Assembly (NCBI GenBank): GCA_949372665.1
Contig: CASIAV010000031.1
Span: 8,699 to 72,698, forward strand
DNA length: 64,000 nt
Source: an uncultured Verrucomicrobiales bacterium
GTDB lineage: Bacteria > Verrucomicrobiota > Verrucomicrobiia > Verrucomicrobiales > Akkermansiaceae
Reading direction: 5' to 3'
Positions 21,040 through 58,848 of the stretch are shown here, piece by piece; position 1 is the first letter of the stretch, and the number at the start of each line of letters is the position of its first letter. The notes beneath the pieces are model-generated. The model saw nothing but the letters and a program-made list of their open reading frames with translations, made no database searches and was not told the origin of the DNA. Both the position numbers and the translations under genes were made by a program.

Positions 21040-21117
21040 CTGACATCAGAGTCTTAGAAGTCCGTGTGGGAAAAAAATCTGGAAAGCTCACATCAAAATT
21101 ACCGTAGTAAATACCTA

Positions 21118-24102
21118 ATGAAACATCACCTGATTCACCTCACCATTTTGAGCTTTTTGTGCCTGAAGGCCTTTGCTGCCGATCCCATGTGGATTTGGAA
21201 GGCCGGCACCATCGCAAGCGAAGAGGCGAACTTTAAAACAACTCTGACGCTTAAGGCCAAGCCGGCCAAGGCTCCCTTGATTATCACTTGTGACAATTCC
21301 TTTAAACTCAGCATCAATGGTAAAAAAGTCACCGCTTCTAAAAATTGGGAGACGCCAGTCAGGATGGATGTTGCGAAGTTTCTTCAGGCTGGAAAGAATT
21401 ACGTGCTCGTAGAGGCTGATAATGAAGGTTCGATGGCCGGTTTCATCATGTCGCTGAAGGCTGGAAAGCAAAAGTTGGTCACCAATAAGAACTGGATGGC
21501 GCAGTCGCATGAGGGCGAATGGCACCAGGCCGTTGAGCTGAAGAAGTATGGAGCAGAACCCTGGGGGAATGTTTTCAATCAAGCGGCAGGCCCTGGCCAA
21601 ATTGCCAAAGCCACGAATTCGCCTAAGTCTATTCCGGTGACCACCTTACCAGGTTTCAAGGCGGAGAAGATTTACGATGTAAATAAAGCCTCGCAGGGGT
21701 CATGGGTGGGAATGACGGTCGATCCCAAGGGGCGGCTCATCACAACGGACCAATATGGCGGAATTTACCGGGTCACCCTGAACCCGAAAGTTTCGGTCGA
21801 AAGGCTCAAGGTTAATGTGAGCGGCGGTCATGGTGCGCTCTATGCTTTCGACAGCCTCTACATCATGGTTGGCGAAGGCAAACGTGGCCTCTACCGCCTA
21901 CGCGATACCAACGGCGACGACCAGTATGACAAAGAGGAATATCTCATTCCGCTTAAGGCTGGTGGCGAGCATGGGTCGCATAGTCTGGTGCTGAGCCCGG
22001 ATAAAAAGTCGATTTACATGGTGGGAGGTAATAACACGGACATGCCACCCTCGGTGACTTCATACCGGATGGCAAAAGCCTGGAAAGAAGATCATATTCT
22101 TCCGCGCATGCCCGACGGACGGGGTCACAACAACGGGCGGATGGCTCCTGGCGGTTTCATCATGAAGGTCAGTCCCGATGGCAAAACGCAGGAAATGATC
22201 TGCCACGGTTTCCGCAATGAATTTGATGCTGCCTTTAATCTGGATGGTGAACTCTTCGCGTTCGACGCGGATATGGAATACGACATCGGTGCCCCGTGGT
22301 ATCGTCCGACACGCGTGAATCATGTTGTTTCTGGCGTGGACTGGGGCTGGCGCCATGGCACCGGAAAATGGCCGAACTATTACACCGATACTTTACCGGC
22401 AACGATCGACATTGGACCTGGTAGTCCGACCGGAGTCAGTAATGGACTGGGAGCCCGCTTTCCCGCGAAATACCAAAAAGCGATCTACATCAACGACTGG
22501 ACCTATGGAACGATGTATGCGATCCATCTTGAGCAGGACGGAGCGAGCTACAAAGCAACCAAGGAAGAATTTGTCTCCGGAAAACCTCTTCCTTTAACCG
22601 ATGTCACCATTCATCCAGATGGCGATATGTACTTTATGGTTGGTGGACGCCGGACCACTTCGGCTCTCTATAAGCTCACTTACGTGGGTGACGAATCAAC
22701 TGCTCGGGTGAAAGCTGGTGCGGTCGATACGGATCTCACCCTTCGTCGTAAAATTGAAACTCTTCATGAGGTCGGAGTTGGTGAAGAGGCGATTGCCAAA
22801 GCGCTGCCATACCTGAAACACCAAGATCGGTTCATCCGATATGCGGCGCGTGTGGCTCTCGAGAAACAGCCGGCAACAAAGTGGCAACATCATCTCACCA
22901 AGGAGAAATCTCCCTGGGGCGTGATCGAACTTTCCACTGCGCTGGCACGCATGAGCACAAAAGACCAACAGCCTAAGATCCTCGCGGCATTGAATCAGTT
23001 GGATTTCAAAAATATGGAAGCGAAGCAGTTTTTGGCCGCTCTGCGCGCTTACCAATTGGCCTTCACTCGACTCGATAAACCGAGCTCGGCTGATGCAGCC
23101 GCAGTGATTGGCACCTTGAATGGTTTATACCCACATGAGGATAATTTCGTGAATCGCGAACTCAGTCAGATTCTACTCTATCTGAATGCTCCCGGCGCGG
23201 TGTCCAAGACCGTGCAGCTGGTTATGAATGCCACTGACATTCAGGAGAAGATTCTCGAAGACAAGGTCCTGCAGCGAAATGATAATTATGCCAAAGCGGC
23301 TCAGCGGACCGAACAATTCCGCCCTAATGTGCAACAATTCGCCCTAGCCTTCTCACTCCGCTCGATCAAAGAGGGTTGGAGCGCCGCCGACCATGCGAGC
23401 TATTTCTCATGGTTCCCACGAGCAAAAACCTGGCAGGGAGGAAACAGCTATGGGGCCTTCATCGAAAATTCCCGCAAGCAAGCGCTCGTTAATGTTACGA
23501 ATGAAGCAGCCCGGAAAAAATACGACGCCGCTTCCGCCAAATCCATGATGCCAGCTCGGGCAATTCAGACTCCCAAAGGTCCGGGTCGTTCATGGACTGT
23601 GAAAGAAGCGGTCTCGGCGGTTGAAGGGAATATGAAGGGTCGAGACTTCGCTAGTGGAGAAAACCTCTTCCACGCTACCGCCTGTGCCTCGTGCCACCGC
23701 TTTGCTGGAGAGGGGATGGGGATCGGCCCGGATCTCACTGGCTCCGCCAATCGTTACGCTTTACGGGACATGATGGAGAACATCATTGAACCATCCAAGG
23801 TGATTTCTGATCAATACATCAGCACTGGGTTTACCATGAAGGACGGGTCGACTGCCATTGGCCGCATTGCCAAAGAAAATGACGGGATGCTTCATCTCAT
23901 GACCAACCCCTTTTCTGCGGACAGCAACGTGCAAATCAAGGCCGCAGATGTGAAGAGCAGAGCTCCCCACGAAGTCTCGCATATGCCACCTTCGCTTATC
24001 AATGGGCTCAACTCTGATGAACTGAGTGACTTGGTTGCCTATATCTTTTCTGCTGGAGACAAAGACCATCAATACTTCTCAGGTGGGAAGAAGAAGCAAT
24101 AG
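21118..24102 (+). CDS. PVC-type dehydrogenase-like beta-propeller / HEAT-repeat / C-terminal CxxCH heme-binding protein with an N-terminal jelly-roll module
   Basis: ATG 21118 (MKHHLIHLTILSFLCLKAFA signal). Propeller-type LPGFKAEKIYD...GMTVDPKGRLITTDQYGGIYRV. HEAT-like repeats. C-terminal CASCHRFAGEGMGIGPDLTG...MPP. Confidence 0.8.
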   Translation: MKHHLIHLTILSFLCLKAFAADPMWIWKAGTIASEEANFKTTLTLKAKPAKAPLIITCDNSFKLSINGKKVTASKNWETPVRMDVAKFLQAGKNYVLVEADNEGSMAGFIMSLKAGKQKLVTNKNWMAQSHEGEWHQAVELKKYGAEPWGNVFNQAAGPGQIAKATNSPKSIPVTTLPGFKAEKIYDVNKASQGSWVGMTVDPKGRLITTDQYGGIYRVTLNPKVSVERLKVNVSGGHGALYAFDSLYIMVGEGKRGLYRLRDTNGDDQYDKEEYLIPLKAGGEHGSHSLVLSPDKKSIYMVGGNNTDMPPSVTSYRMAKAWKEDHILPRMPDGRGHNNGRMAPGGFIMKVSPDGKTQEMICHGFRNEFDAAFNLDGELFAFDADMEYDIGAPWYRPTRVNHVVSGVDWGWRHGTGKWPNYYTDTLPATIDIGPGSPTGVSNGLGARFPAKYQKAIYINDWTYGTMYAIHLEQDGASYKATKEEFVSGKPLPLTDVTIHPDGDMYFMVGGRRTTSALYKLTYVGDESTARVKAGAVDTDLTLRRKIETLHEVGVGEEAIAKALPYLKHQDRFIRYAARVALEKQPATKWQHHLTKEKSPWGVIELSTALARMSTKDQQPKILAALNQLDFKNMEAKQFLAALRAYQLAFTRLDKPSSADAAAVIGTLNGLYPHEDNFVNRELSQILLYLNAPGAVSKTVQLVMNATDIQEKILEDKVLQRNDNYAKAAQRTEQFRPNVQQFALAFSLRSIKEGWSAADHASYFSWFPRAKTWQGGNSYGAFIENSRKQALVNVTNEAARKKYDAASAKSMMPARAIQTPKGPGRSWTVKEAVSAVEGNMKGRDFASGENLFHATACASCHRFAGEGMGIGPDLTGSANRYALRDMMENIIEPSKVISDQYISTGFTMKDGSTAIGRIAKENDGMLHLMTNPFSADSNVQIKAADVKSRAPHEVSHMPPSLINGLNSDELSDLVAYIFSAGDKDHQYFSGGKKKQ

Positions 24103-44995: not shown

Positions 44996-45850
44996 CTACT
45001 TCTTGGAAATTTCTCCCGCGAGTTTCACATACTCGTGGCTCAGCTTTCCTTCTTCTTTGGCCGTCCATTTCCGGAAGCCGAGGGGGCGTTTGTCGAAGTT
45101 CTTGCTGGTCGTCTCACCATTCACCATCTGGATCCCTTCGTAGTCATTGACGACGAGCTTGTGGGTGTGGCCGGCGAGCATCGCGACCACTCCGTTGGTT
45201 TTAAAAAGATTGAGCAACTCCTTCCGCTTGGCGGGCTCGATGTTGTAGTAGTTTTCCTTCTCATCGGGCTCTTTGACAAAGAGCGGGTAGTGCGTCACGA
45301 CAACGACCGGGCTACCTTTTTTCTTGGCTGATTTTAATGCGGCCTTGAACCAGGTGTCGTGTTTTTCGGACTCACCTTTGAGAGGAGCCTTCCAAAGTTG
45401 CGTGTTCGCTACGACAAAGGTGTATCCCTTGTGTTCGAGGGTGAAGTAATCCTTCCCAATTTTTTCGCGATAGTTCTTGAGAGATTCCGCGGTGGGTTTG
45501 TTTCCAACATCGTGATTTCCAGCGGCACAGTGGCAGGGGATTTTGAAGCCACCTTTGATCCGGTTGAAGTCAGCAAAGGATTTTTCGTTGGCCTTGCCGA
45601 CGAGATCACCGCAGATGAGGACGAAATCGGGAGCCATTTTATTGATCTGCTTGACCGCGAGTTCGAAGGTTTGCACATCGTGCTCGTAGCCGCCCATGCC
45701 GAGTTGAGTGTCGCACATTTGGATAAAGGTGAATTCCTTCGAGGGGTCCTCCTTGGCTACTTCTTCAGCCATTCCCGGGTGATTGATGAAAGCAAGAGAG
45801 GCCACCAGAGCGGTAGCGGCCAGTAGAGGGAGGGCACGGGAAAAGTTCAT
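44996..45850 (-). CDS. Secreted calcineurin-like metallophosphoesterase
   Basis: Signal peptide. FIQMCDTQLG, ICGDLV, AAGNHD, VVVTHYP and LAGHTHK motifs. Confidence 0.8.
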   Translation of the reverse strand: MNFSRALPLLAATALVASLAFINHPGMAEEVAKEDPSKEFTFIQMCDTQLGMGGYEHDVQTFELAVKQINKMAPDFVLICGDLVGKANEKSFADFNRIKGGFKIPCHCAAGNHDVGNKPTAESLKNYREKIGKDYFTLEHKGYTFVVANTQLWKAPLKGESEKHDTWFKAALKSAKKKGSPVVVVTHYPLFVKEPDEKENYYNIEPAKRKELLNLFKTNGVVAMLAGHTHKLVVNDYEGIQMVNGETTSKNFDKRPLGFRKWTAKEEGKLSHEYVKLAGEISKK

Positions 45851-45931: not shown

Positions 45932-47482
45932 CTAGTCGCTCGGGATCCGGTTGAGAGTATACCAAGCTTGAGGGTGCTTTAGCCTTTGACCTAACTTTGA
46001 CCTCAACCCTTGGGTGGTTAGCTCAAAGACATAATTGGTTCTTAGATTTTCGACCTTAAAGCGGACTGATCTTCCGCCCATGGAAGTTTTAATCCCACTG
46101 ATTTTATGCCGAGCAGGATTGATCTCGTCACCACCGTAACGAGAGGAATATTGGTAAGTAAAACTACTCACCTTAAGTGACTCGGGGGTCAATGAATCGG
46201 GATGGAGTGGCTCGGTAAAAACCAATTCGAAGCCGTCGGGCTGGGCTTTCATCTCCTTGATTGCAAATGGTGTTTTTTGATTAAAGGTAATCCGCTGTAG
46301 TCCATAACTCCGATTCCCTAGAGACGACCAACCACGGTTGCTCATTCCAACAAACAGCGAGCCATCAGGTGCAAATTGAAGGCGCAAGACTGCTGCGGGG
46401 AAGTGATTTAAGAAAGGGAAGCAAGCCCCTTGATACTGTCCATCCACTTCCTCCAAAAAGACACGATTCACCGCGGAGTTGGTAAACTCACCGATCAGTA
46501 ATTGTCCGTCGAAGGGACCAAACTTGCCGTCTTGGTCGATAAGTTGCACATCAGTCGCAGACCGCCCCATCTTATTGTAGGGCAGCCAAACTGCGGGTGG
46601 GACAAATCTCTCTGAGCTAGTGAGCGCTTCTCCATAGGCTTGATTTGGCTCGGGAATCACCTTCATTTCAAAGGGAGCTTCTGGCGACTTGAGGCTGGCG
46701 AGCGATTCCTGATTTCCATAAAAGACGCCGGGCCTGAGATGGTAAATTGGAGTGGCTGGAATCCAGGTCCCTTGTTGGTCCGAGAAGAATAAGTCCCCTT
46801 TCAAATTTGCTCCCATCCCAGAAGGCGAACGCATCCCTAAGGCTTTGGGCTGGAAGGAGCCGTCCTTGCTAATCGTTCCAGCCCAACCACGCCAGCCGAT
46901 GTGATTATTCGCTAGCTTTCCCATGCCAAGGTTGAGGGACACCCAGAGGTTGCCATTTCCGTCGCGAGCTGGGCCGTAAGCATAGGCGTGGTAGTTGCCC
47001 GAGACATTCCAGCCGTCACACTCGGTGAGATAAGCATCCGCCTCTCCATTATTATTGCTATCTCGGAGACGTGTTACTTCACCCCGTTGGGCCACCAAAA
47101 GATCCATCCCATCTTTTAGCAATCCAAGCGGTTCATGTAGTCCGGAAGCGAAGAGCTTGAAATTGATTTTATTACGATCGGTAGACAAGGGATTCTCGAG
47201 CATCCAGATTTCTCCCTTGCGAATACAAACTGCCAACTTGTCCTCAATCCATTCCATGCCACTGACCTCCATGGGGATACCCTCACTGGGTTTCCACGCC
47301 GGATCGCGGGAATCTTTTTCGCCACCTGCGGCGAGGATTTCGAAGCGCTCGTATGATCTGGGAATTTTCGTCTCTTCTGCCTGAGTGACCAATGTGATCG
47401 AGATGACTAGGGCAAGCTGAAGTAGCGCCTTGGCCCTTTTAGGTTGATCGAGAAGGCGTCGACTCAAATTTCTCATTTCCAT
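45932..47482 (-). CDS. Secreted beta-propeller protein (glucose/sorbosone-dehydrogenase-like, PVC type) without its own heme domain
   Basis: Signal peptide. GLHEPLGLLKDGMDLLVAQRGEVTRLRDSNNNGEADAY. The C-terminal beta-sandwich is homologous to the remnant at 1677-2045. The second Met (47476) forms an ATGA overlap with the upstream stop. Confidence 0.7.
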   Translation of the reverse strand: MEMRNLSRRLLDQPKRAKALLQLALVISITLVTQAEETKIPRSYERFEILAAGGEKDSRDPAWKPSEGIPMEVSGMEWIEDKLAVCIRKGEIWMLENPLSTDRNKINFKLFASGLHEPLGLLKDGMDLLVAQRGEVTRLRDSNNNGEADAYLTECDGWNVSGNYHAYAYGPARDGNGNLWVSLNLGMGKLANNHIGWRGWAGTISKDGSFQPKALGMRSPSGMGANLKGDLFFSDQQGTWIPATPIYHLRPGVFYGNQESLASLKSPEAPFEMKVIPEPNQAYGEALTSSERFVPPAVWLPYNKMGRSATDVQLIDQDGKFGPFDGQLLIGEFTNSAVNRVFLEEVDGQYQGACFPFLNHFPAAVLRLQFAPDGSLFVGMSNRGWSSLGNRSYGLQRITFNQKTPFAIKEMKAQPDGFELVFTEPLHPDSLTPESLKVSSFTYQYSSRYGGDEINPARHKISGIKTSMGGRSVRFKVENLRTNYVFELTTQGLRSKLGQRLKHPQAWYTLNRIPSD

Positions 47483-49560
47483 GAATAGATATATTTGATG
47501 CTGCGTTCGCCGGTGATGGTCTCAAGCCGCACTCCTGCTGGATGAGCGACCGGTGGAGAAATTCCTCGGTCCCACTTTACCATCCGGATCAACTTCCCGT
47601 CTTCAGCCCGATAGCTATCTTGGATGGTTTGATTGATCCGACTGGATAAAAACGTGGGGTTGCCACGAGGGCCGATCGTATAGCCCCGGAAACGTGATGC
47701 TTCAAGCCCAGCATTATTAACTGGATAGACTTCGCTACTTAAAGGTTTTTCGAATGGGACAAATCTTGAGAACCAGGTGCCATAGGCATCGAAAAATCGC
47801 CCCCGCCAGACCAGTGATAGTTGTGATTTCATTCCATCGTAAGCGAGATGAATTTCTCCTGGGAATCCTACTAAGATGGCCTTTGTTCCTGTCTTCTCGA
47901 AGAAGGCACGCTGGATGATAGGAGTGGTTTGCGGCACAAGTTCAAAGCGATCGCTGCGGTGATTTGGGAATCGGTTTGGCAATCCTTTTCCTTCTTTGAT
48001 GAATCCCCAAATGGCGGCGATCTGGTGTTCCGTGTCACCACCAAGAACATTGCGAATGGAGGATTGGCCTTTGGGCCAAAAAGAGGGCATGAGCGTTCCA
48101 GGGCGATAGCTGGAAGGGTCGAGAAGATAGGAGCGGAACCAGCTGGGTTGTATTCGCTGATCAAGCGAGCGGATATTAAGAGCCGGGATCCCCAGTGATT
48201 GTTGATCACCCCAGCTGTGGCAGGTGATACAGTTGACGCCGCCCTGATTGCCCAGGAGCTTGCCCCCCATCTCGGTGTGCTTTGAATTTAGGATGATGGG
48301 TTGTGCCCGTGGATCGGAATCAAGCTCAGCGAGCCACTTTGCGAGAACTTCCGCATTGCCCGGATAGGCCGGCATCTGGGTCTTTAAATAAGGACGCACC
48401 TGGCGATCTTTGCGTCCTTCCAGCACCCCTTCCAGCCAGTCGTATTGAAGTTTATGACCAATGCCAGTGAGGGGTGGAGGAACGCGGCCGGAGTCACCAA
48501 GGCTTTTGTTACCGATGAAGAAAGAATCAACCTCTGGGACCGGACCTCCTTTTCCATCGCGGCTGTGGCAGGCGTAACAATTCATAGCGGCAAAGCTTAG
48601 ATGACCCTTCGAAGAATCTGGCGGGACAGTTTTGTTTCCTTTAAGATAAAGAGCTAGAGATATGCGTTGTGTTTTAGTGAGGCGATAGTGGGGTGCTCCT
48701 TTGACAGAATTCTTTGAGATACAGGCCCCATTTTTAAAAGAAGAGGACAATGCGAGTGGACGTAATTTTGATACTTTTATTTCCGGTAGGTCGTGGCACG
48801 AAGCACAGTTCATTTTGGTGACTAGCGATCTTCCTCGGGCGACTTTTTCGTGATCTATTTTGGGCCAGGGAATAAGATCAGGAGCCTGTCTTGGATCGCT
48901 TGATTGGTAGTCGAGCAAATGAGCGGCAAGGTCGATGGCCTCCTGCTTTTCAAGAGGAATACGAGGCATTCGGCTATCTGGACGAAACTTCGAAGGATCA
49001 GCGAGAAAGTGTTCTAGCGCGGTGAGAGTCGTCTTCTGTCCCAGATCTGGTAATGGGACTGCTAGAGGTGAGGTGAGTTTTAAGCCACTTCCTTGTGGTC
49101 CACGAAAATCACGGGTTGGAGCATGGCAGGCCACACAGCCTTTTTCATGATAGAGGGCGCTTCCACGTTCTGCATTGGCATGACGGGCTTTCTTAAATTT
49201 GAGTCCGTTCCCAAGGGTAGCTAGATAAGAAACGATGGCATCGATTTCTTGTTCGACGAGGCCATGTGCCATGTGCGGCATGGTGGATCCTTGGCGGCTA
49301 GCCTCGGGATTCTGAAGAAATTGTATGACCCAATCATGACTCACCCTACTTGATAGGTTTTCGAGGGAAGGACCTTTCCGAGGAATGATAACTTGGGAAC
49401 CTCCGTGGCAATTGGCGCAGCCGAGTTCAGAAAAAAGAACCGCGCCCCCTTGTGCCGAAGGAGTCCGCGAATGAAAACGCTCGTAGCCGACGACATGAGG
49501 TTCGGCATGAGCTCCTCCCCAAGTGAGTAGCAATAAAGCGGATAGAAAATTTCGCATCAT
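47473..49560 (-). CDS. Secreted penta-heme c-type cytochrome
   Basis: Signal peptide and five CxxCH motifs: CANCH, CVACH, CASCH, CYACH and CITCH. ATGA overlap with the upstream gene at 49557-49560. Confidence 0.85.
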   Translation of the reverse strand: MMRNFLSALLLLTWGGAHAEPHVVGYERFHSRTPSAQGGAVLFSELGCANCHGGSQVIIPRKGPSLENLSSRVSHDWVIQFLQNPEASRQGSTMPHMAHGLVEQEIDAIVSYLATLGNGLKFKKARHANAERGSALYHEKGCVACHAPTRDFRGPQGSGLKLTSPLAVPLPDLGQKTTLTALEHFLADPSKFRPDSRMPRIPLEKQEAIDLAAHLLDYQSSDPRQAPDLIPWPKIDHEKVARGRSLVTKMNCASCHDLPEIKVSKLRPLALSSSFKNGACISKNSVKGAPHYRLTKTQRISLALYLKGNKTVPPDSSKGHLSFAAMNCYACHSRDGKGGPVPEVDSFFIGNKSLGDSGRVPPPLTGIGHKLQYDWLEGVLEGRKDRQVRPYLKTQMPAYPGNAEVLAKWLAELDSDPRAQPIILNSKHTEMGGKLLGNQGGVNCITCHSWGDQQSLGIPALNIRSLDQRIQPSWFRSYLLDPSSYRPGTLMPSFWPKGQSSIRNVLGGDTEHQIAAIWGFIKEGKGLPNRFPNHRSDRFELVPQTTPIIQRAFFEKTGTKAILVGFPGEIHLAYDGMKSQLSLVWRGRFFDAYGTWFSRFVPFEKPLSSEVYPVNNAGLEASRFRGYTIGPRGNPTFLSSRINQTIQDSYRAEDGKLIRMVKWDRGISPPVAHPAGVRLETITGERSIKYIYSWK

Positions 49561-50465
49561 TTTTTCAGGCAGTCATTAAGATATGCCCTTGAGGTGTTGA
49601 TGGCTTTTGTAATCTTTGCTGCGGACCCAAGCATTGGAATTCCTCTTGGGACCGGGTGGCCAAAGATCTCCACAAGTCCCGAGTATCGGATGTCACGAAG
49701 GGCTTTCAGGATGGGGATGTAATCGAGCTTTCCAAATCCGGGGAGTTGTTTGAGTTGTTCCTGTTCGGACATCTTCTTTTTCGAAGAGGGATGATATTCT
49801 TGGAAATAAATGAACGGAATGTGGGTGTTTCCTCCTTCCCTGAGTAGTGCAGAAATCTGATCAATGGCGTCGTGAAGATGATGTGGGGCGAAAGCAACTC
49901 CGACGTTCTTCGAAGGATTTAACTCGTAAAAATACCTAATTGAATCGGGAGAAGAGAGCATTGAATTCTTGTGATTTTCAATGGCCATGGTGACACCAAG
50001 TTCTTCGGCCAGTTCATAGTGGGGTTTTAGTTTTTCAAAAAAGGCTTTTACTTGTTTTTTAGCCTCTTGGCCCACTGGATCTTTAGGCCCCATCCCACCT
50101 GAGCCGCACACTGTGATCGAGCCCCCGTTCTTCTTCGTCCAGCGCATCTCATTGTCCTGCCGGAAAGGTCCAAGGGGATAGCAGGTTGAAACTGACATCG
50201 TGGTGAGATGCTTTTTGAGGAGCTCTTGAAAAGCTTCATCTCCGATTTTGCTGATTTGCTCGCGATGAGTCGCATGAACTTTGCGCCAAATATCTACCGA
50301 TTCACTGCCTGTTTTTACTGCCTCTGATAAAACATGATCAAGAGGCATAGTTCCATACATGGCCGATGACATGACATAGCGGGGCGTCCATTCTTGTTCT
50401 AACTCCCTCGCAGAAGTGAAAAGAGCGCTACCTCCGAGGAGGGTTGAAAAATTTCTTCGATTCAT
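49557..50465 (-). CDS. Tat-signal xylose-isomerase-like TIM-barrel (sugar phosphate isomerase/epimerase family) protein
   Basis: Start at ATG 50465 (MNRRNFSTLLGGSALFTSA), which forms an ATGA overlap with the upstream stop, rather than the track start 50591. MAIENHKN-type motif. About 300 aa. Confidence 0.6.
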   Translation of the reverse strand: MNRRNFSTLLGGSALFTSARELEQEWTPRYVMSSAMYGTMPLDHVLSEAVKTGSESVDIWRKVHATHREQISKIGDEAFQELLKKHLTTMSVSTCYPLGPFRQDNEMRWTKKNGGSITVCGSGGMGPKDPVGQEAKKQVKAFFEKLKPHYELAEELGVTMAIENHKNSMLSSPDSIRYFYELNPSKNVGVAFAPHHLHDAIDQISALLREGGNTHIPFIYFQEYHPSSKKKMSEQEQLKQLPGFGKLDYIPILKALRDIRYSGLVEIFGHPVPRGIPMLGSAAKITKAINTSRAYLNDCLKK

Positions 50466-51037
50466 TTCTTCGCCTCTTCCTCGAGCATCTTGATCCAAGG
50501 TCCCACGTAGTGCCCGTTGTCGTGAAAGGTTCTGCCTGAGACTAGGTTTCCATCGATCACACAGGCTTCGTTGACGTAAATTCCGCCACAAATCTCGAGG
50601 TCAAACTGGCATTTTGCCACGGTTGCCATCCGTCGACCCTTCACACAATCCGCGCGCGCGGGAATCTCAACCCCGTGACAAACACTAGCAATCGGTTTAT
50701 TTCGCTCAAAAAACCATCGGGTTAATTGAATAAGATCCGGATCCTCACGAATGTATTCTGGTGCTCGTCCGCCGGAGAATAGAATGCCGAGATAGTCCTC
50801 TGGGTTCACTTCTGAAAAAGCAAGATCAGCAGCTAGCTGATATCCCTCCCACTCACGTGTGATGGTCCAGCCCGGACGGACTTCGTGCATCACCATTTGA
50901 TAGAGCCTCTTTTCGGGAGCGATCACTACGGGTTCAATTCCAGCCTCCTGCAAGCGGTAGTAGGGGTAGAGAGTGTCTACGGTCTCAGTTGCGTCCCCAA
51001 TTACAATCAGAGCTTTTCCGATCACTTTGTTTGTCAT
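50462..51037 (-). CDS. DJ-1/PfpI family protein (class I glutamine-amidotransferase-like fold)
   Basis: 191 aa with no signal peptide. Nucleophile-elbow motif PIASVCHGVEI. LFSGGRAPE. Confidence 0.8.
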   Translation of the reverse strand: MTNKVIGKALIVIGDATETVDTLYPYYRLQEAGIEPVVIAPEKRLYQMVMHEVRPGWTITREWEGYQLAADLAFSEVNPEDYLGILFSGGRAPEYIREDPDLIQLTRWFFERNKPIASVCHGVEIPARADCVKGRRMATVAKCQFDLEICGGIYVNEACVIDGNLVSGRTFHDNGHYVGPWIKMLEEEAKK

Positions 51038-51158
51038 TTCGGCATGCTAATTTCCTAGGTTGAGACGTCTATCTATTTATAGCCCAGAAAAACGTATCGC
51101 TTTGATGATAGTTTTCCATCTGACTATTGATGAAACTTATTTCGGACAATACTGACAC

Positions 51159-51881
51159 ATGAAATTGCAAAAAGGAGTTCTAGGCGCGCTTGTCATCGTT
51201 TTGTTTTCTATGCCTGATGTGGGAGCGGAAAAGGCGAAGAGAGAAGAGAAGAATTTGTTCATCCTTTCCGGCCAATCGAACATGGCGGGGATGGATGAGT
51301 CTCTCACGTTTACTCCGGCCGTGACCAAGGCTTTTGGGAAAGATGGGGTCATTGTTGTAAAGAATGCCAACAGCGGGCAGTCGATTCGTAGCTGGGCCAA
51401 GACGAACCATGAAGATCCTCCTCCAACGCGGGGTCGTGTTCCGAAGGTGAGGGGAGAGCTTTACGACCCCTTGATCAAGAAGGTGAAGACGGCGATTGAG
51501 GGAGAGCCCTTAAAGACAGTGACCTTGGTTTGGATGCAGGGTGAATCGGATCTCAACAACACCGCTTACGATGCCTACCTCAAGGAATTACTACAGCAGT
51601 TGCAGACGGATTTGGCCTTCAAGGAAATCAATATCGTGATTGGAAGGATCAGTGACAGCGGGCTCGACAATCCTAAGCGCCTCGAAGGACGCCTCAATAT
51701 CCGAAAAGTTCAGAAGACCTTTGCCGAAGGGCATCCTCGCGGAGCGTGGGTCGACACCGACGATTTGAATGACCGCGAAGCTGAAGGAAAAGTGATCCAC
51801 GATCTCCACTACACCAAGGAAGGATATCGGGAGCTGGGAACGAGATTCGCAGAGGAGGCGATTCGTTTGATTAAGCGTTGA
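51159..51881 (+). CDS. Sialate O-acetylesterase-like (SASA/DUF303) secreted esterase, short form
   Basis: Signal peptide. LFILSGQSNMAGM. LVWMQGESD. DLHYTKEGYRELG. Confidence 0.75.
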   Translation: MKLQKGVLGALVIVLFSMPDVGAEKAKREEKNLFILSGQSNMAGMDESLTFTPAVTKAFGKDGVIVVKNANSGQSIRSWAKTNHEDPPPTRGRVPKVRGELYDPLIKKVKTAIEGEPLKTVTLVWMQGESDLNNTAYDAYLKELLQQLQTDLAFKEINIVIGRISDSGLDNPKRLEGRLNIRKVQKTFAEGHPRGAWVDTDDLNDREAEGKVIHDLHYTKEGYRELGTRFAEEAIRLIKR

Positions 51882-51996
51882 GCTACGCAAAAAGAGTGAT
51901 TGACCTACCCATTATAGGGGTAGGAGATGTGATTGAAGATTTGAAAGCTCTTGCTCCAGGCACTCGTTCGGAGCCCACGGAGTTAATCAAATATTT

Positions 51997-53058
51997 ATGA
52001 AAATGAACAATAGAAGAAACGCAACAAGCCTACTGGCTGCCATGAGCCTTGGCTTTGCCGGTGTCGCAAGCGCCGAACTCCCTGATCCCGATGGGAAGCC
52101 CGCCGACATGGGTAAGCCGGTTCAAGTTTACATCCTGATGGGGCAGTCCAACATGCTGGGTTTTGGCAAAATTGGTGGAGGCGAGGGATCTCTCGAGCAC
52201 GCTGTGAAGGAGAAAGGTCTCTATCCCTATCTTGTTGATGACGAAGGTAATTGGACCGAGCGTAAAGATGTGCGCAATGTCCGTGTGATGGGGAGTGGTG
52301 GTCCGGGCAAGACAAGGCAGTTCAACAATGAATGGATGAAGATCGGAAAGGGAAAGATCGGTCCTGAGATTGGGATTGGTCATCACATTGGCCAAGCCGT
52401 CGATGCTCCGATTATGATTCTTAAGAGCTGCATTGGGAACCGTGGTCTTGGTTGGGATCTTCTTCCTCCGGGAAGTGAAGGTTTTGAATTCACTGATTCG
52501 AAAGGTCAGGCTTGGGTTCACCCCGGATACAAAGGTTCTCCTGAAAGATGGAAAAAGGGCGAAGATCCCAAGCCGATTGGTTGGTATGCCGGCCTTCAAT
52601 ACGATGGCGATGTCGATCGCGCGAAGAAGGTCCTCGCGGAACTCGATAAATACTACCCTGAGGCGACAAAGTACGAAGTGGCAGGATTTCTTTGGTGGCA
52701 GGGCGATCGCGACAGCCGGAGCGAAGCTCTTTCACAGCGGTATGAGAAAAATCTTGTGAATCTAATTAAGTCTCTCCGTAAGGATTTCAAGGCACCCGAT
52801 GCAAAGTTTGTGACGGCATCTCTTGGTCAGACCAAGCAGGGGTCCACTGATGGAGGCGGCAAGATTCTAGATGCCATGCTCGCAGTTGATGGTGAATCCG
52901 GCAAATACCCCGAATTCAAAGGAAACGTGGCGGCGGTTTATACGCATCCGCTGTCTAAGGGGGGAAGCTCCGGCGGGCACTATAGTGGGAACGCTGAAAC
53001 CTACATGAACGTTGGTGATGCGATGGGCAAGGCAATGGTCGAGTTGCTCAAAAAGTAA
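51997..53058 (+). CDS. Sialate O-acetylesterase-like (SASA/DUF303) secreted esterase
   Basis: Signal peptide. VYILMGQSNMLGFG. AGFLWWQGDRD. Confidence 0.75.
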   Translation: MKMNNRRNATSLLAAMSLGFAGVASAELPDPDGKPADMGKPVQVYILMGQSNMLGFGKIGGGEGSLEHAVKEKGLYPYLVDDEGNWTERKDVRNVRVMGSGGPGKTRQFNNEWMKIGKGKIGPEIGIGHHIGQAVDAPIMILKSCIGNRGLGWDLLPPGSEGFEFTDSKGQAWVHPGYKGSPERWKKGEDPKPIGWYAGLQYDGDVDRAKKVLAELDKYYPEATKYEVAGFLWWQGDRDSRSEALSQRYEKNLVNLIKSLRKDFKAPDAKFVTASLGQTKQGSTDGGGKILDAMLAVDGESGKYPEFKGNVAAVYTHPLSKGGSSGGHYSGNAETYMNVGDAMGKAMVELLKK

Positions 53059-53211: not shown

Positions 53212-56200
53212 ATGGAAGAGGGCCCAGATCAGAGCTGGCCATATCTACCGCTGAAAGATAGGGTGCCCCCTTCGTCTCTTAGATTGGTTATGGTGCTTTT
53301 AAAGATTATTAACCCCGCCTCATTAGCTAAGCGCCTCCTTCTTCTAAGTGCTCTTGGAAGTTATCTCTTGGTGGGGCTTTTATCGCTGTCAGCTGATTCT
53401 CATCTTGCAGAGCAAAACTTGTTAGCAGGTGCTCACGTTCAGGATATCACACCTCCTTTTGATTCTCTTTTGATTAATGGAGGGTTTGTTGAAAGAAGAC
53501 GGGGGAAGATGCAGCCGGGTGATCTCAAGGCGCGTTGTTTTGTTTTACAGCGTGGTGAAGTCAGCATCGCGGTGGCAGTGGTCGATAGCTGCATGATTCC
53601 TCGGGATGTTTGTGACCGGACAAAAGCTCTGGCATCACAAAAGACTGGAATTCCCATTGATCAAATCGTCATTGCAGCGACCCATACCCACTCTGCTCCG
53701 AGCACGATGGATTATTGTTTGGGAACAATGGCAGACCCGGCTTACACCGAATTCTTACCGAGTAAAATTGCGGAGGGGATTGTGAAGGCCTATGGGAAAA
53801 TCGAGCCAGCGCAAATTGGTCACAAGCAAGTGAAAGCCACTGGCTACAATTACAATCGGCGCTGGATCACGCGGCCAGATCAAATGCAAAGAGATCCCTT
53901 TGGTGATAAAACGGTCCGAGCTATGATGCATCCTGGATTTCGAAATCCAAAATACGTCGGACCTTCCGGCCCGGTTGACGATGAATTGTCTGTCTTATCG
54001 ATTCAGGCTTTGAATGGTGATCCGATTGGCGTTCTCGCGAATTTTTCGATGCACTACCATGGCGGTGGGGGAGGCCCCGCGGATTACTTTGGTCTTTTTT
54101 CTGATCGGCTTGCTAAGCAGTTGGCTGTCGGAGGGCGTGAGCCTGTGTGCGCCATGACTCAGGGCACGAGCGGAGACCTGCATTTGCGAGATTATGAAGG
54201 CGATCGAACTAATTCAGATATCTCGATCTATACCGATGGGCTGGTTGAGATTGCCAAAGGGGCAGTTGAAAAGGTTCGTTATGACCGAAGTCCCCTGCTC
54301 GGGATGGACCAGAAAGAGCTCACGCTTTCACGGCGATTGCCTGACGCGAAGCGTTTGGCTTGGGCTGATAAAATGCTCTCTGAAATGAAAGGGCAAAGGC
54401 CCAAAAACCGCCCCGAAGTTTACGCGGAACAGGCTCGATACATTCATAAAAACCCCACTGAAAACCTTGTCTTGCAAACGCTACGGATTGGAAATTTGGG
54501 GATTACGACAATTCCCAATGAAGTTTACGCCATCACGGGCCTTAAGCTCAAAGCCTGGAGCCCATTCCCTTCGACCTTTAATATTGAATTGGCGAACGGG
54601 GCCGCGGGATACATTCCGCCTCCTGAACAACACGCTTTGGGAGGTTACACCACTTGGCCGGCTAGGACTGCTGGGTTAGAGGTGGAGGCCGAGCCAAAGA
54701 TCGTTGAGACTTTGTTGAGCTCTTTTGAATCTCTCGCAGGAAAACCCCGTCGACCGTCGCTGAGGCATCAAGGAGATTACGTAAAATGGATCATGGCGCA
54801 AAAACCTTTGGCCTACTTTCAGTGTGAGGATTTGGGAGGGGGCACGTTGGACGATGCCTCTGGCCAAGGTCGTAGCGGGCATGTTGAGGGGGTGGTGGCT
54901 TATCATCTTCCGGGGCCTGAGTGTCAGGCTATTTCTGAACAAAACTCAAATAATGCTCTTCAGCTGGCAGGTGGACGTATTTCAGTCACGGTTCCAAAGG
55001 CCCGAACATTATCCTTTTGGTTTTGGAATGGCATGAGTAATACGGTGCGAGACCATACCGGTGACCTTGTGCAGCATGGGGTGTCTCGCTTTCTGCGGAT
55101 TGGCGGCAAGGCGGATGGGGAGTCTAGTGGTTCTTTAATTTTACAAGATGGTGAAAAACGTTTTTTTGGTAAGACAAAGTTAGCCTTAAAAGCATGGCAT
55201 CACGTGGTAATGTCCCAAGAGGAGGAAGAGGTGAAGATTTATCTTGATGGCCACATCATACCAGAAGTGAGTGCCCCTCTTACCCCGTCTGAATCTGAGC
55301 AATGGCACTTGGGGGGGGAGTTGCCAGTCGAAGGGCGCCTCGATGAAGTCGCTTGGTTTAAGGGCGCCTTTAGCCAAAAAGAAGCGGCCCGAAATTTTTC
55401 TGCTTCAAGGATGACTCCACCCGCGCGCCCTGCTCCGCCCCGTCCAAAGTATGACCGCGGTGCGATGGCTGGTTATCAAAAATCAGTTTTGGCTTCTCAA
55501 CCATCAGTCTGGATCGAACACGGAAATGAGGCTTCTCAGCAGCGCGTTCAGAAAAAATTTGAAGGGATCGAAGATGTCTACACTGTAGAATTTTGGGTTC
55601 GCAACCAACTTCCAAATCAAATCCGTCCGGTTACTGCCTACTTGTTTTCGCGAGGAGTGGATGGCATGAAAGAGGCGGAAGGAGACCATCTTGGTATTGG
55701 GGGATCACACCTTGCAGCGGGAAAATTAATTGTTTTTCAGGGGAACCGGAGCGGGGGGCTATTAACGGGAGTGACTGAGCTTGAACCAAATAGCTGGCAT
55801 CATCTCGCCATGATTCGTGAGGGAGAGCGGGTGCGAGTGTATTTGAATGGAAGATCTGAACCTGAAATCGATGGGACCCTTGCTCGCACTTATCCGGATG
55901 GGCATCCTGAGTTTTTTTTTGGAGGCCGAAGCGATCGCTTTTCTATTCTTGAGGGGCGCCTTGATCACGTTGCTTTATATGATCGGGCTCTCTCGATTGT
56001 TGAGATTTCGGAGCATTACGAGGCAGTTAATTTGCTGCCAAGCGAAAAGAATTTAGAGGAAAGTAATTCCGGGGCCCTTTCGCCACAGGATGCTCTCTCA
56101 AGCATACATGTCCCTGAGGGCTATCGAATTGAGTTGGTGGCGAGTGAGCCGTTGATCAAAGATCCCGTCGCAATTGATTGGGGGGCTGATGGCAAATTAT

Positions 56201-58848
56201 GGGTTGCGGAGATGGCAGATTATCCCTCTGGAGTTGATGGAAAGCCTGGAGGACGTGTGCGTTTTTTGGAGGATCTTGATGGGGATGGGAAATACGAAAA
56301 ATCGACTCTTTTTCTCAAAGGGCTCAATTACCCTGCGGGAATCATGTCTTGGCGCAGTGGAGTAATTGTAGCGGCCGCGCCTGATTTGATCTATGCGCAA
56401 GACACCACTGGTGACGGTAAAGCTGATCTCCAAGAAGTGCTCTATTCCGGATTCAAGCAAGGCAATCAACAGCTACGAGTCAATGGATTGAGCTGGGGTT
56501 TGGACAACTGGATTCATGGTGCCAATGGGAGTCACCATCCTGGGTATGCAAAAAATACCATGATTCATTCTTCGCGAGCAGGAAGCACTTTACCACTAGG
56601 TAGTATGGACTTTCGAATTCGTCCCGATGAGGGGCTGATGGAAGCTCTCTCTGGACCTTCTCAATTTGGCCGAGCGCGCGATGATTGGGGGAATTCGTTC
56701 GGGGTGCAGAACAGTTTCCCCCTTTGGCACTATGTTTTGGAGGAGCGCTATTTGACTAGGAACATTAATTTTGCACCACCTGAAATTCGTCGTCAGCTTC
56801 GCCCTCAAAATCCGCGAGTGTTTCCAGCGTCATCCCTCCAGAAACGGTTTCACAGTTTTAATCAATCTGGGCGTTTCACGAGTGCTTGTTCGCCGATGAT
56901 TTATCGTGATCGACTTTTGTTTGACGACGAGCAGGTGCATGCTTTGACCTGCGAGCCCTTTCATAACTTAGTGCAGCGAGTCGTGTTGGATCGTGATGGC
57001 TACAGCTTTAAAGCCAAGCGGGCAGAAGAAGGAGCCTTTGATTTTTTTGCTTCTGAGGACAGATGGTGTCGCCCGGTGATGGCCCGAACTGGTCCAGATG
57101 GTGCCGTGTGGGTAGTCGACATGTATCGATATATGATTGAGCATCCCGAGTGGTTGCCTGACGAGGGGAAAAGAGAAATGAAAGCGCACGAGCGCAAGGG
57201 GTCTGGTTACGGGCGGATTTATCGTATTTTGCCCAAGGATGAGCCGGTCCGGGAAATCCCAGATCTGGCGAAGGTTGCTCCCAAAAATCTTGTGAGGTAT
57301 TTGGCAAGTCCAAATGGAATTGTGCGAGATCTTGCTCATCGCCTTCTTGTCGAAAGAAAAGCGGTTTCGGTGACTGGTCAGGTTTCGAAGATGGCCTTAA
57401 AACATCCGAGTCCTAGAGCTCGTTTGCACGCTCTGTGTGTGCTCGATGGAATCAATCGATTGACTCTGGAGATCCTCTATTCCGCGTGCAAGGATCCCCA
57501 TCCTCAACTTCGTCGTCATGCCGTTCGTCTTGCGGAATATCGCTGGGCTAAAGAGCCTGAATTAGTCGTAGCCGTCTCGGAGATGATCGATGATGTTGAT
57601 TTAGGGGTGCGCTTGCAGGTGGCTTGCTCATTAGGCAACTCAAAGAGACCTGAAGCGGGCCATGCTCTGGCTGCCTTGGCGGTAGATAATGCCGCGGACC
57701 CTATGATTAGGGCGGCAGTGATGAGCTCGCCTCCGCATCATTTTATTGCCCTAGCCGAGCGAGCTCTTGATCAAGGGGTGTTGGTTGACGAGCTCATTAA
57801 AGTGGCTGGGGCTAAAAACCATGCCGCCTTAGAAGCACTGGTTACCCGACTCTCCCAGCCTGGCAAAGAAGGCTTCCAACCGGTGCAATTCCAATCGCTG
57901 AGCCATTGGGCTGATCTTCATCCCCAAGCTTCAGTAAGTCTCAGTCATGTGATTGGGGAGGCACGCAAAATCGTCCGCATGCCAGGGGGATCGAGCCCGC
58001 TTAAAATTGCCGCAATTAGCTTATTGGGAAGAGAGGAAAACAAATTTAAGAGCGACCGAGATCTCTTAGGAGAATTACTTATTTTGTCGGAATCCAGCGA
58101 AATGAAATTTGCGGTGATTGAAGCTCTTGCGAGAATGGGTGGACCGGACATACCACGCCTTATGATTGGTTCTTGGAGTGGATGTTTTCCTCGAGAAAGG
58201 TCAAAAATTATGGACACCCTCCTCCAGCGAAAAGAGTGGGCGATGACAATGCTCAAAGCGATAGGACAAGGTCAAATTTCGCCAGAAGCAGTTGATGTTT
58301 CGAGGCGCCAGATCCTGCGAACTCATGCGGATGCCGGGATTAAAAAGATGGCAGAGGAGTTGTTTCCCTCTCATGGAGGACTGACACGAGCGCGGCAGCT
58401 CAAGAAATTCCGTTCTGCTTTGGAACTTAAAGCGAATCCTCAAGATGGGCGAGCGGTGTTCAATCGAGCCTGTGCGCATTGTCACCTTTCGGTAAAGGGT
58501 CTCCCCATGAATGGGCCAGACCTACGCTCCATTACAGAGCGTAGCAAGGAGGGTCTCTTCACCTCAATTTTAAATCCTAACGAATCAGTGGACCCTTCTT
58601 ATTTCGGTTATTCAGTGACTCTTAAAGACGGTAAAATGCTCTTTGGAAGGGTTCTTGCAGAAAAGGAGAACAATCTCACTTTGAGACTTCTTGATGGTAG
58701 TGATCGTCAGATTCTCCGAAAAAGAATTAAAGGTTTAGACACAAGTGGGCGCTCGCTTATGCCAGATGGTCTCGAGCTTGGTATGACCCACCAAAATCTT
58801 GCTGACCTGATTGGATTTTTACAAACCTTTGGGCGCGAAGGTGAATAA
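53212..58848 (+). CDS. 1878-aa fusion protein: neutral-ceramidase-like N-terminal domain, two LamG domains, PVC-type dehydrogenase-like propeller, HEAT repeats and a C-terminal CxxCH heme domain
   Basis: The start is uncertain (53212, or Met at 53290). Ceramidase-like VAVVDSCMIPRDVCDRT...IVIAATHTHSAPS. LamG-type GRLDEVAWFKGAFS and GRLDHVALYDRALS. IHVPEGYRIELVASEPLIKDPVAIDWGADGKLWVAEMADYPSG. HEAT-like repeats. ACAHCH...SLMP. Confidence 0.8.
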   Translation: MEEGPDQSWPYLPLKDRVPPSSLRLVMVLLKIINPASLAKRLLLLSALGSYLLVGLLSLSADSHLAEQNLLAGAHVQDITPPFDSLLINGGFVERRRGKMQPGDLKARCFVLQRGEVSIAVAVVDSCMIPRDVCDRTKALASQKTGIPIDQIVIAATHTHSAPSTMDYCLGTMADPAYTEFLPSKIAEGIVKAYGKIEPAQIGHKQVKATGYNYNRRWITRPDQMQRDPFGDKTVRAMMHPGFRNPKYVGPSGPVDDELSVLSIQALNGDPIGVLANFSMHYHGGGGGPADYFGLFSDRLAKQLAVGGREPVCAMTQGTSGDLHLRDYEGDRTNSDISIYTDGLVEIAKGAVEKVRYDRSPLLGMDQKELTLSRRLPDAKRLAWADKMLSEMKGQRPKNRPEVYAEQARYIHKNPTENLVLQTLRIGNLGITTIPNEVYAITGLKLKAWSPFPSTFNIELANGAAGYIPPPEQHALGGYTTWPARTAGLEVEAEPKIVETLLSSFESLAGKPRRPSLRHQGDYVKWIMAQKPLAYFQCEDLGGGTLDDASGQGRSGHVEGVVAYHLPGPECQAISEQNSNNALQLAGGRISVTVPKARTLSFWFWNGMSNTVRDHTGDLVQHGVSRFLRIGGKADGESSGSLILQDGEKRFFGKTKLALKAWHHVVMSQEEEEVKIYLDGHIIPEVSAPLTPSESEQWHLGGELPVEGRLDEVAWFKGAFSQKEAARNFSASRMTPPARPAPPRPKYDRGAMAGYQKSVLASQPSVWIEHGNEASQQRVQKKFEGIEDVYTVEFWVRNQLPNQIRPVTAYLFSRGVDGMKEAEGDHLGIGGSHLAAGKLIVFQGNRSGGLLTGVTELEPNSWHHLAMIREGERVRVYLNGRSEPEIDGTLARTYPDGHPEFFFGGRSDRFSILEGRLDHVALYDRALSIVEISEHYEAVNLLPSEKNLEESNSGALSPQDALSSIHVPEGYRIELVASEPLIKDPVAIDWGADGKLWVAEMADYPSGVDGKPGGRVRFLEDLDGDGKYEKSTLFLKGLNYPAGIMSWRSGVIVAAAPDLIYAQDTTGDGKADLQEVLYSGFKQGNQQLRVNGLSWGLDNWIHGANGSHHPGYAKNTMIHSSRAGSTLPLGSMDFRIRPDEGLMEALSGPSQFGRARDDWGNSFGVQNSFPLWHYVLEERYLTRNINFAPPEIRRQLRPQNPRVFPASSLQKRFHSFNQSGRFTSACSPMIYRDRLLFDDEQVHALTCEPFHNLVQRVVLDRDGYSFKAKRAEEGAFDFFASEDRWCRPVMARTGPDGAVWVVDMYRYMIEHPEWLPDEGKREMKAHERKGSGYGRIYRILPKDEPVREIPDLAKVAPKNLVRYLASPNGIVRDLAHRLLVERKAVSVTGQVSKMALKHPSPRARLHALCVLDGINRLTLEILYSACKDPHPQLRRHAVRLAEYRWAKEPELVVAVSEMIDDVDLGVRLQVACSLGNSKRPEAGHALAALAVDNAADPMIRAAVMSSPPHHFIALAERALDQGVLVDELIKVAGAKNHAALEALVTRLSQPGKEGFQPVQFQSLSHWADLHPQASVSLSHVIGEARKIVRMPGGSSPLKIAAISLLGREENKFKSDRDLLGELLILSESSEMKFAVIEALARMGGPDIPRLMIGSWSGCFPRERSKIMDTLLQRKEWAMTMLKAIGQGQISPEAVDVSRRQILRTHADAGIKKMAEELFPSHGGLTRARQLKKFRSALELKANPQDGRAVFNRACAHCHLSVKGLPMNGPDLRSITERSKEGLFTSILNPNESVDPSYFGYSVTLKDGKMLFGRVLAEKENNLTLRLLDGSDRQILRKRIKGLDTSGRSLMPDGLELGMTHQNLADLIGFLQTFGREGE

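Follow-up and report, generated by a model that had tools for sequence, protein, structure and literature searches.

What do a DJ-1/PfpI protein, a xylose-isomerase-like TIM barrel, a multiheme cytochrome c and a heme-less beta-propeller do together in a single operon? The question is raised by a locus of an uncultured Verrucomicrobiales bacterium, lying in a stretch of 64,000 nucleotides (nt) that was analysed as a whole and is called the window below. The host genome is Akkermansiaceae-like (4.1 Mb, 38 contigs) and the window corresponds to C31:8699-72698. We consider, with a probability of roughly 60%, that the propeller is a periplasmic dehydrogenase working with its own pentaheme cytochrome; confidence in the substrate is lower. 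An earlier note on the window had proposed a module for periplasmic oxidation that feeds a multiheme chain, which would remain the best reading. That note had also listed four genes joined by three ATGA overlaps and encoding a cytoplasmic DJ-1, a TIM barrel exported by twin-arginine translocation (Tat), a cytochrome of 695 amino acids (aa) with five CxxCH motifs and a heme-less propeller, and all of this was borne out when coordinates and overlaps were read directly on the minus strand (Table 1).

Conservation of the operon

Gene order was followed by tblastn of the four window proteins, using one genome per species, in 70 loci encoding relatives of the cytochrome. All of these loci belong to Verrucomicrobiales/Akkermansiaceae or Opitutales. 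The order TIM barrel, cytochrome, propeller and the common strand were constant wherever the contig reached, down to 43% cytochrome identity, the sole exception being L061, where the TIM barrel is missing. Synteny of the four genes in genomes of the Planctomycetes-Verrucomicrobia-Chlamydiae (PVC) group had been suggested as a check on the operon; TIM barrel, cytochrome and propeller keep their order in essentially all of the 70 related loci, and DJ-1 is found upstream in about 45 of them. Independent gene calls on a metagenome contig gave XylR, DJ-1_PfpI, AP_endonuc_2, cytochrome and DUF7133, the cytochrome of this ortholog being 55% identical. The conserved unit consists of DJ-1, TIM barrel, cytochrome and propeller, with a XylR-type regulator beside it in part of the loci, and the other flanking genes vary by lineage. 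The operon is real, widely conserved in environmental Verrucomicrobiota and uncharacterised. Among 401 genomes sampled evenly across the phylum, true orthologs were present in just two genomes besides the host and paralogs in ten more, and the operon was absent from the small Akkermansia genomes of the sample.

The inner junctions are conserved as well. The stop codon of the TIM barrel gene lies within ATGA in 38/59 loci and within GTGA in 11/59 (49/59 together), and that of the cytochrome gene within ATGA in 42/54 and GTGA in 11/54 (53/54 together). Since these overlaps are kept at both inner junctions, the inner three genes are translationally coupled as a conserved trait. Two start codons deserve mention. 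An alternative ATG 6 bases upstream of the propeller start (47482) would turn the ATGA into a 10-nt overlap, and the list of open reading frames (ORFs) gave the TIM barrel a longer TTG frame, while the ATG at 50465 opens the twin-arginine leader MNRRNF.

The X domain, the propeller and the cytochrome

The last ~168 residues of the cytochrome appear to form a heme-less all-beta domain without solved relative, which we call the X domain. Modelled alone by AlphaFold2 (AF2), it reached a pLDDT (predicted local distance difference test) score of 90.4, and comparison of this fold with the PDB gave no significant match (best E 6e-3, TM <= 0.39, GH38 or mutarotase-like). DUF6797 matched 4 of 25 aligned X domains (best E 1e-3), the copy of the window being unmatched. 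A profile of the domain recovered 2432 clusters (50% identity) from 1.84 billion representative proteins, and exactly five CxxCH motifs were counted in 95 of the best 149. When the X region of the C1 paralog was used as query, the matches listed were Verrucomicrobial or unnamed proteins only.

The host genome contains at least nine modules made of an electron carrier and a propeller, named here by contig (Table 1). When every six-frame ORF of at least 80 aa was searched with the hidden Markov model of the X domain, six proteins were recovered, each encoded immediately upstream of, or fused to, a full-length propeller (6/6). The same was seen in ten further genomes of the class, where 16/16 matches adjoin a same-strand propeller of the family, with the order reversed in one, which brings the pairing to 22/22 in 11 genomes. 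The X domain may be C-terminal, N-terminal or internal, and the accompanying redox centre may be five hemes, one heme or copper. The module on C16 is, judged by its domains, a copper-wired version of the carrier-plus-propeller system. Because the partner is constant while redox centre and position vary, and because a natural cytochrome-X-propeller fusion exists, the X domain reads as a dedicated adaptor that would dock the electron carrier on the propeller; on this basis the propeller would be an oxidoreductase. That propeller and cytochrome are functional partners, as the earlier note had it, agrees with the synteny, the coupling, the natural fusion and the 22/22 pairings. The X domain itself, the paralogous modules (including the copper version and the true fusion) and the XylR-type regulator of other lineages had no place in that note.

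The operon had also been described as a split version of a fused architecture, with a propeller of the same type as those at 21118-24102 and 53212-58848, and both ideas hold in part. The propeller is genuinely, though remotely, homologous to the fused PVC-type protein at 21064-24102 (hhalign probability 94%, 23% identity). However, the propeller scored 28.5 bits against TIGR02604, far below the cut-off of 122, compared with 261 bits for the 1878-aa neighbour (53212-58848), and it has a C-terminal beta-sandwich of its own. Being below this cut-off and having no C-terminal CxxCH domain on the same polypeptide, it falls outside the proteins that combine TIGR02604 with TIGR02603. The cytochrome consists of five class-I-like heme domains and the X domain and is not a detached TIGR02603 heme domain (20 bits, cut-off 68). 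The PVC-type CxxCH proteins (TIGR02604, HEAT repeats and TIGR02603; 21064-24102 and 53212-58848) occur in the same phyla, pair a propeller with heme and are uncharacterised, but unlike the operon they are single polypeptides with one C-terminal heme. Since the X profile matches six carriers only in the host genome, none of its fused PVC-type proteins has an X domain, and a simple split of such a protein was ruled out.

In Pfam, the window propeller matched DUF7133 only (E 1e-4; 22.1 bits, where the gathering score is 27); the C16 paralog exceeds this score with 38.9 bits, and an ortholog has a precomputed match at E <= 1e-5. The protein begins with a hydrophobic helix and has no CxxCH motif. 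An AF2 model built from 22 orthologs and paralogs (pLDDT 86.7, predicted TM score 0.87) predicts a six-bladed propeller at residues ~70-400 followed by the C-terminal beta-sandwich. The best PDB matches of the model by Foldseek were all soluble sugar dehydrogenases dependent on pyrroloquinoline quinone (PQQ), namely 3a9g, 2ism, 1cq1, 1c9u, 3das and 6jt5 (E 3e-13 to 1e-9, TMt 0.56-0.75), with 3a9g at E 3e-13, TMt 0.75 and probability 1.0. By model and fold search, the window propeller thus has the six-bladed fold of the soluble glucose dehydrogenase (sGDH)/Asd type. PF07995 (GSDH) was not among its Pfam matches at E <= 0.01, and the C6 paralog passes the PF07995 cut-off (32.9 bits vs 25).

Residues invariant or nearly so in orthologs and paralogs are H163 (in NYH), R216 (GMRSP), Q235-G236 (DQQG), R365 and a DxDxDGxxD-like motif. 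H163, R216 and Q235-G236 sit in motifs resembling HxxG, RN and QGP, and solved PQQ enzymes are not aligned by profile. We take H163, R216, Q235-G236 and the DxDxDGxxD-like motif to resemble the catalytic His, the RN-motif Arg, the PQQ/Ca-loop Gln-Gly and the structural Ca site of sGDH, respectively, as a lead and not as a test. A PDB search with the canonical GSDH of the host gave Hedgehog-interacting-protein alignments only. Residue-level mapping of a PQQ site was given up because profiles do not align the propeller to the solved PQQ enzymes. In the mechanism that we propose, the propeller would be an exported, quinoprotein-sugar-dehydrogenase-like enzyme oxidising a periplasmic substrate. 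Its electrons would pass to the co-translated pentaheme cytochrome, held on the propeller via the X domain; the hemes of this cytochrome, mostly of the His/Met type, would relay them towards the aerobic respiratory chain.

The cytochrome matches Cytochrom_C in Pfam (6e-29 over three stretches) and also CBB3. Its five CxxCH motifs, at residues 48, 142, 252, 328 and 444, are kept in 61/61 orthologs, and an invariant MP-motif Met follows hemes 1, 2, 4 and 5 (M94, M198, M396, M491). With a putative distal Met at these four hemes, the protein is best described as a multidomain class I c-type cytochrome. Heme 3 (C252ASCH, window 48793-48807, minus strand) has no conserved Met ligand. Cys280 (window 48721-48723, minus strand), 24 residues past the heme 3 His and 28 past its first Cys, is invariant in 61/61 orthologs, and an equivalent Cys is apparently kept in paralogous pentaheme proteins when their sequences are read by eye. 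Heme 3 may be His/Cys-ligated.

Table 1. Coordinates of the operon features in the window, and the carrier-plus-propeller modules of the host genome
Feature	Position	Strand	Description
DJ-1/PfpI gene	50462..51037	(-)	191 aa; first gene of the operon; cytoplasmic, no signal peptide
Xylose-isomerase-like TIM barrel gene	49557..50465	(-)	302 aa counted from ATG 50465; Tat-exported
Pentaheme cytochrome c gene	47473..49560	(-)	695 aa; exported, Sec leader; five class-I-like heme domains, C-terminal X domain
X domain	47476..47979	(-)	cytochrome residues 528-695; heme-less, all-beta; proposed propeller-docking adaptor
Propeller gene	45932..47476	(-)	514 aa; exported; six-bladed, residues ~70-400; proposed dehydrogenase subunit
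Propeller C-terminal beta-sandwich	45935-46279	(-)	residues ~400-514 in the AF2 model
Stop/start overlap DJ-1/TIM barrel	50462..50465	(-)	ATGA; read as gaagaaATGAatcg at 50465-50462
Stop/start overlap TIM barrel/cytochrome	49557..49560	(-)	ATGA; read as aaaaaATGAtgcg at 49560-49557
Stop/start overlap cytochrome/propeller	47473..47476	(-)	ATGA; read as tggaaATGAgaaat at 47476-47473
Divergent intergenic region	51038..51158	.	121 bp, 5' of DJ-1; presumed promoter region, from position alone
Metallophosphoesterase gene	44996..45850	(-)	exported; 81 nt 3' of the propeller, same strand; Pfam Metallophos 2e-16
Module C31 (operon of the window)			carrier with five hemes and X domain, 695 aa; propeller 514 aa
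Module C1			carrier with five hemes and X domain, 759 aa; propeller 494 aa
Module C6			carrier with one heme and X domain, 390 aa; propeller 524 aa
Module C4			carrier with X domain and one heme, 315 aa, preceded by a xylose-isomerase TIM barrel; propeller 483 aa
Module C27			carrier with one heme, 373 aa, X domain undetected; propeller 841 aa with DUF1080 (3-keto-disaccharide-hydrolase) and EF hands
Module C16	C16:23510-26658		heme-less carrier with cupredoxin, PA14 and X domain, 555 aa, overlapping the propeller gene; propeller 496 aa
Module C1 (fusion)	C1:185384-187885		cytochrome c, X domain and propeller in a single 833-aa protein
Modules C7 and C34 (larger)			four- or five-heme cytochrome without X domain, paired with or fused to a more distant propeller

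Substrate, cofactor and competing explanations

The most likely substrate would be an aldose or the hydroxyl of a sugar or glycoside. Xylose-isomerase TIM barrels or a fused DUF1080 domain occur in paralogous modules, a divergent Tat-exported TIM barrel lies opposite one of the modules C7/C34, and carbohydrate esterases and sulfatases are found among the neighbouring genes. A XylR-type regulator (Peripla_BP_3 plus an AraC helix-turn-helix) stands divergently 5' of DJ-1 in 30/70 loci, mostly ~100-230 bp away. No ortholog of it was found in the host genome, where the best match is 32-35% identical, and its place is occupied by two SASA carbohydrate (sialate O-acetyl) esterase genes (window 51159-53058, plus strand). 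Such a sugar-binding regulator would control the unit in most lineages, and would have been lost in the lineage of the window.

The TIM barrel matches PF01261 (AP_endonuc_2) at 7e-15, with 55.8 bits against a cut-off of 31.1. Its Tat leader, MNRRNFSTLLGGSALFTSA, contains R3 and R4 of MNRRNF, which are invariant in 20/20 aligned orthologs. Its nearest solved relatives are weak matches (E 6e-5 to 3e-3): D-tagatose 3-epimerase (6e-5), TM0416, MJ1311 and IolI, all of which act next to a sugar carbonyl. E163, and E266 in the MJ1311 alignment, line up with two canonical Glu residues; where Asp and His would be expected, the alignment with D-tagatose 3-epimerase has an invariant Ala193 and Tyr/Phe, respectively. 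Gln residues are invariant too, as are H195, H196, E223 and H270, and these three His and one Glu may substitute as metal ligands. The enzyme, probably metal-loaded in the cytoplasm, would act on the keto-sugar product of the propeller or prepare its substrate, by epimerisation, isomerisation, dehydration or beta-elimination. The earlier note had proposed isomerisation; a keto-sugar reaction is possible, but isomerisation is just one among several. In Agrobacterium, 3-keto-glycosides are cleaved or hydrated by TIM barrels that carry the annotation sugar phosphate isomerase (PMC10628242).

DJ-1 matches DJ-1_PfpI in Pfam (5e-31, 108 bits vs a cut-off of 26.6) and reaches 124 bits against TIGR01382, below the cut-off of 139; its fold starts at residue 8, and it has no leader. 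Among solved structures, Arabidopsis DJ-1D, a glyoxalase III, is the closest relative (4ofw, 9e-45). The Cys-His elbow ASVCHG is invariant in 41/41 orthologs and the upstream Glu is conserved, features shared with DJ-1D and with the PfpI/YhbO glyoxalase III/deglycases. In contrast to DJ-1D, the protein of the operon is a single-domain bacterial protein, embedded among genes for periplasmic redox proteins. Glyoxalase III or deglycase activity is characteristic of DJ-1D-like proteins. It is plausible that DJ-1 would serve in protection from dicarbonyl products or in their salvage, and the cytoplasmic protein would probably clear reactive dicarbonyls arising from the sugar chemistry proposed above.

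Several results weigh against a propeller dehydrogenase acting with these partners on sugars. Compared with PDB chains by sequence and by profile, the propeller gave only NHL "Pizza" repeat noise and no PQQ enzyme, and hhalign against the canonical GSDH of the host aligned a single blade, out of register. PqqC, searched phylum-wide in the 401 genomes with TIGR02111 over its cut-off, is absent from the host and from every sampled genome with the operon or a paralog; the five positive genomes (5/401), all of one family with small genomes, serve as control. The TIM barrel apparently lacks 2/4 of the canonical metal ligands of ketose 3-epimerases, at positions which we presume for the reference enzymes. 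No 3-keto-glycoside eliminase (AtOGE, AtHYD, CGE) was found among its PDB matches at E <= 1, with the single sequence or with a 20-sequence profile. Finally, DJ-1 is absent, degraded or displaced by ~3 kb in roughly 20 loci, and it may have a general role since it is far more conserved than its operon neighbours.

The latter point opens an alternative in which the functional unit consists of cytochrome and propeller, perhaps joined by the TIM barrel, and DJ-1 is a stress or housekeeping gene that shares the promoter. Of the four proteins DJ-1 varies least, with 74-99% identity across two orders against partners that fall to 43-60%, and is still 74-77% identical where the cytochrome is 43-46% identical. 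It lies immediately upstream in ~38 loci, 3.1-3.5 kb upstream in four Opitutaceae loci, is a mere fragment in ~5 loci and is missing from ~10, an uneven presence which allows for a looser link to the operon. The junction with the TIM barrel gene is a gap of 3-40 nt in 32/45 related loci and ATGA in just 6, and DJ-1 is the single copy of its type in the host genome. In ~45 loci from both orders, the gene nevertheless stands between regulator and TIM barrel with its place and orientation unchanged, and we regard its independence from the other three as possible, although rather doubtful.

A further proposal concerns the cofactor. Because the hosts lack PqqC, the propellers must use scavenged PQQ or a different cofactor. 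Apo-quinoproteins of E. coli use scavenged PQQ, and uptake of external PQQ by the hosts of the operon is possible. As many copies of the family occur in bacteria unable to make PQQ, the family propellers may use another cofactor. One may then speculate that the X domain is a modular electron-transfer adaptor of a large family of periplasmic propeller oxidoreductases (about 2400 clusters) that can be combined with heme or copper carriers, possibly with a protein-derived quinone or a metal centre instead of PQQ, and that heme 3 has a gating or catalytic function; taken as a whole, this proposal is doubtful.

With the propeller still a dehydrogenase, the substrate could lie outside the glycans, as an Amadori (glycated amine) product, a polyol or an aldehyde, with the TIM barrel as a FrlC-like ketoamine or ketose epimerase and DJ-1 as the deglycase or glyoxalase of the pathway. 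The glyoxalase III/deglycase nature of DJ-1D-like proteins would suit this, as would the ketose 3-epimerases and IolI among the nearest TIM barrel relatives, and the coenzyme A (CoA)-transferase and enoyl-CoA hydratase genes after the propeller in Opitutaceae hint at an acid product. We consider it unlikely, the regulator being a XylR-type sugar binder, with carbohydrate esterases and sulfatases nearby and DUF1080 domains in paralogs.

Electrons might also flow in the reverse direction, the propeller being a terminal reductase or oxidase that reduces a periplasmic oxidant and is fed by the cytochrome, or by the cupredoxin in the paralog. NirS, NirK and NosZ, likewise propeller-containing enzymes, are fed by cytochrome c or azurin. 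The carriers are class-I His/Met hemes or blue copper, classic donors to periplasmic reductases; the hosts do not make PQQ; and at heme 3 an invariant Cys replaces Met, as in catalytic or low-potential hemes. Yet the best fold matches of the propeller are all dehydrogenases, it has few invariant His for a CuZ- or d1-like centre, and the TIM barrel, the XylR regulator and the DUF1080 fusions would be left without a role, which makes reverse flow improbable. Chance adjacency of four functionally unlinked genes was rejected as next to impossible in view of the 70 syntenic loci, the conserved stop/start overlaps, the Rosetta-stone fusion and the 22/22 X-propeller pairings.

Neighbouring genes, related systems and significance

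No sigma-70-like site was found in the divergent intergenic region 5' of DJ-1, and a scan for promoters and terminators gave fewer promoter-like sites than in shuffles and none at the operon ends. The metallophosphoesterase gene follows the propeller in L006 alone, has another position in L007 and L008 and is missing from the remaining loci; it is possibly a lineage-specific trailing gene outside the operon core. A sulfatase gene overlaps the propeller stop by 4 nt in one freshwater/metagenome lineage (L080 9548-10933, L081 3780-5165), and this overlap hints at sulfated sugar substrates. Among the Opitutaceae loci L041-L073 (e.g. L046 11597-13587), genes for a family III CoA-transferase (17 loci) and an enoyl-CoA hydratase (15 loci) adjoin the cluster, directly 3' of the propeller in ~10 loci and otherwise upstream or on the opposite strand. 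A ceramidase-like gene of ~475 aa is found beyond the XylR regulator in nine loci (L015-L018, L023, L040, L042, L066 and L080), and a ceramidase-like module (34% similar) forms the N-terminus of the 1878-aa LamG/TIGR02604/heme fusion of the window (53212-58848, plus strand). Since related loci share this module, the fusion protein may be functionally tied to the operon. Elsewhere in the window, a 122-codon frame (1677-2042, plus strand) matches the C-terminal beta-sandwich of the propeller family alone (profile 399-499, E 8e-10) and has no Pfam match; it may be a remnant of a propeller gene that was lost, or else a small domain on its own.

The earlier note knew of no described system with this four-gene composition, and we found none either; no paper was found on DUF7133 or DUF6797, and a literature search on periplasmic 3-keto sugars and Verrucomicrobia gave nothing relevant. 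The soluble PQQ sugar dehydrogenases (A. calcoaceticus sGDH, E. coli YliI/Asd, Pyrobaculum 3a9g and the fungal AA12 pyranose dehydrogenase) share the six-bladed fold and a periplasmic or secreted location, whereas the propeller of the operon has no sequence-profile match to them, an extra beta-sandwich, an obligatory X-domain carrier and hosts without PqqC.

The closest published analogue is that of Voutsinos et al., who modelled PQQ six-bladed propellers with an adjacent cytochrome c4 or c551, the cytochrome being predicted to dock over the propeller active site and to feed the respiratory chain (bioRxiv 10.64898/2026.07.10.737718). As in the operon, a propeller dehydrogenase is encoded beside a periplasmic class-I cytochrome c. 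Their propellers are AA12-like, have all nine PQQ-binding residues and come with plain di- or mono-heme partners, whereas the operon combines a DUF7133-like propeller, a partner with five hemes and an X domain, a Tat TIM barrel and DJ-1, in hosts without PQQ synthesis. In the oxidise-eliminate-hydrate-reduce glycoside pathway of Agrobacterium tumefaciens, which consists of GlycDH, AtOGE, AtHYD and a Gfo reductase (PMC10628242), a sugar-oxidising dehydrogenase is likewise encoded with "sugar phosphate isomerase/epimerase" TIM barrels that act on its 3-keto product. That dehydrogenase, however, is a flavoenzyme and not a propeller, and the operon has no Gfo reductase or second TIM barrel. No similarity to AtOGE or CGE was detected for the TIM barrel of the operon.

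Verrucomicrobia play a major part in breaking down complex and sulfated glycans in oceans, soils and lakes, and their genomes contain dozens of propeller-heme proteins which, to our knowledge, have no known function. The natural 833-aa fusion (C1:185384-187885) offers a useful modelling template for the two-subunit complex, and the missing PQQ synthesis in the hosts raises a testable cofactor question. If the X domain is an adaptor, it would represent a new portable coupling of an enzyme to heme or copper carriers, of interest for bioelectrocatalysis, sGDH-type enzymes being already used in sensors. If the proposed function is true, the DUF7133 and DUF6797 families would gain a first link to a function, and a respiratory sugar or glycoside dehydrogenase would show how Verrucomicrobia gain energy directly from the oxidation of carbohydrates in the periplasm.

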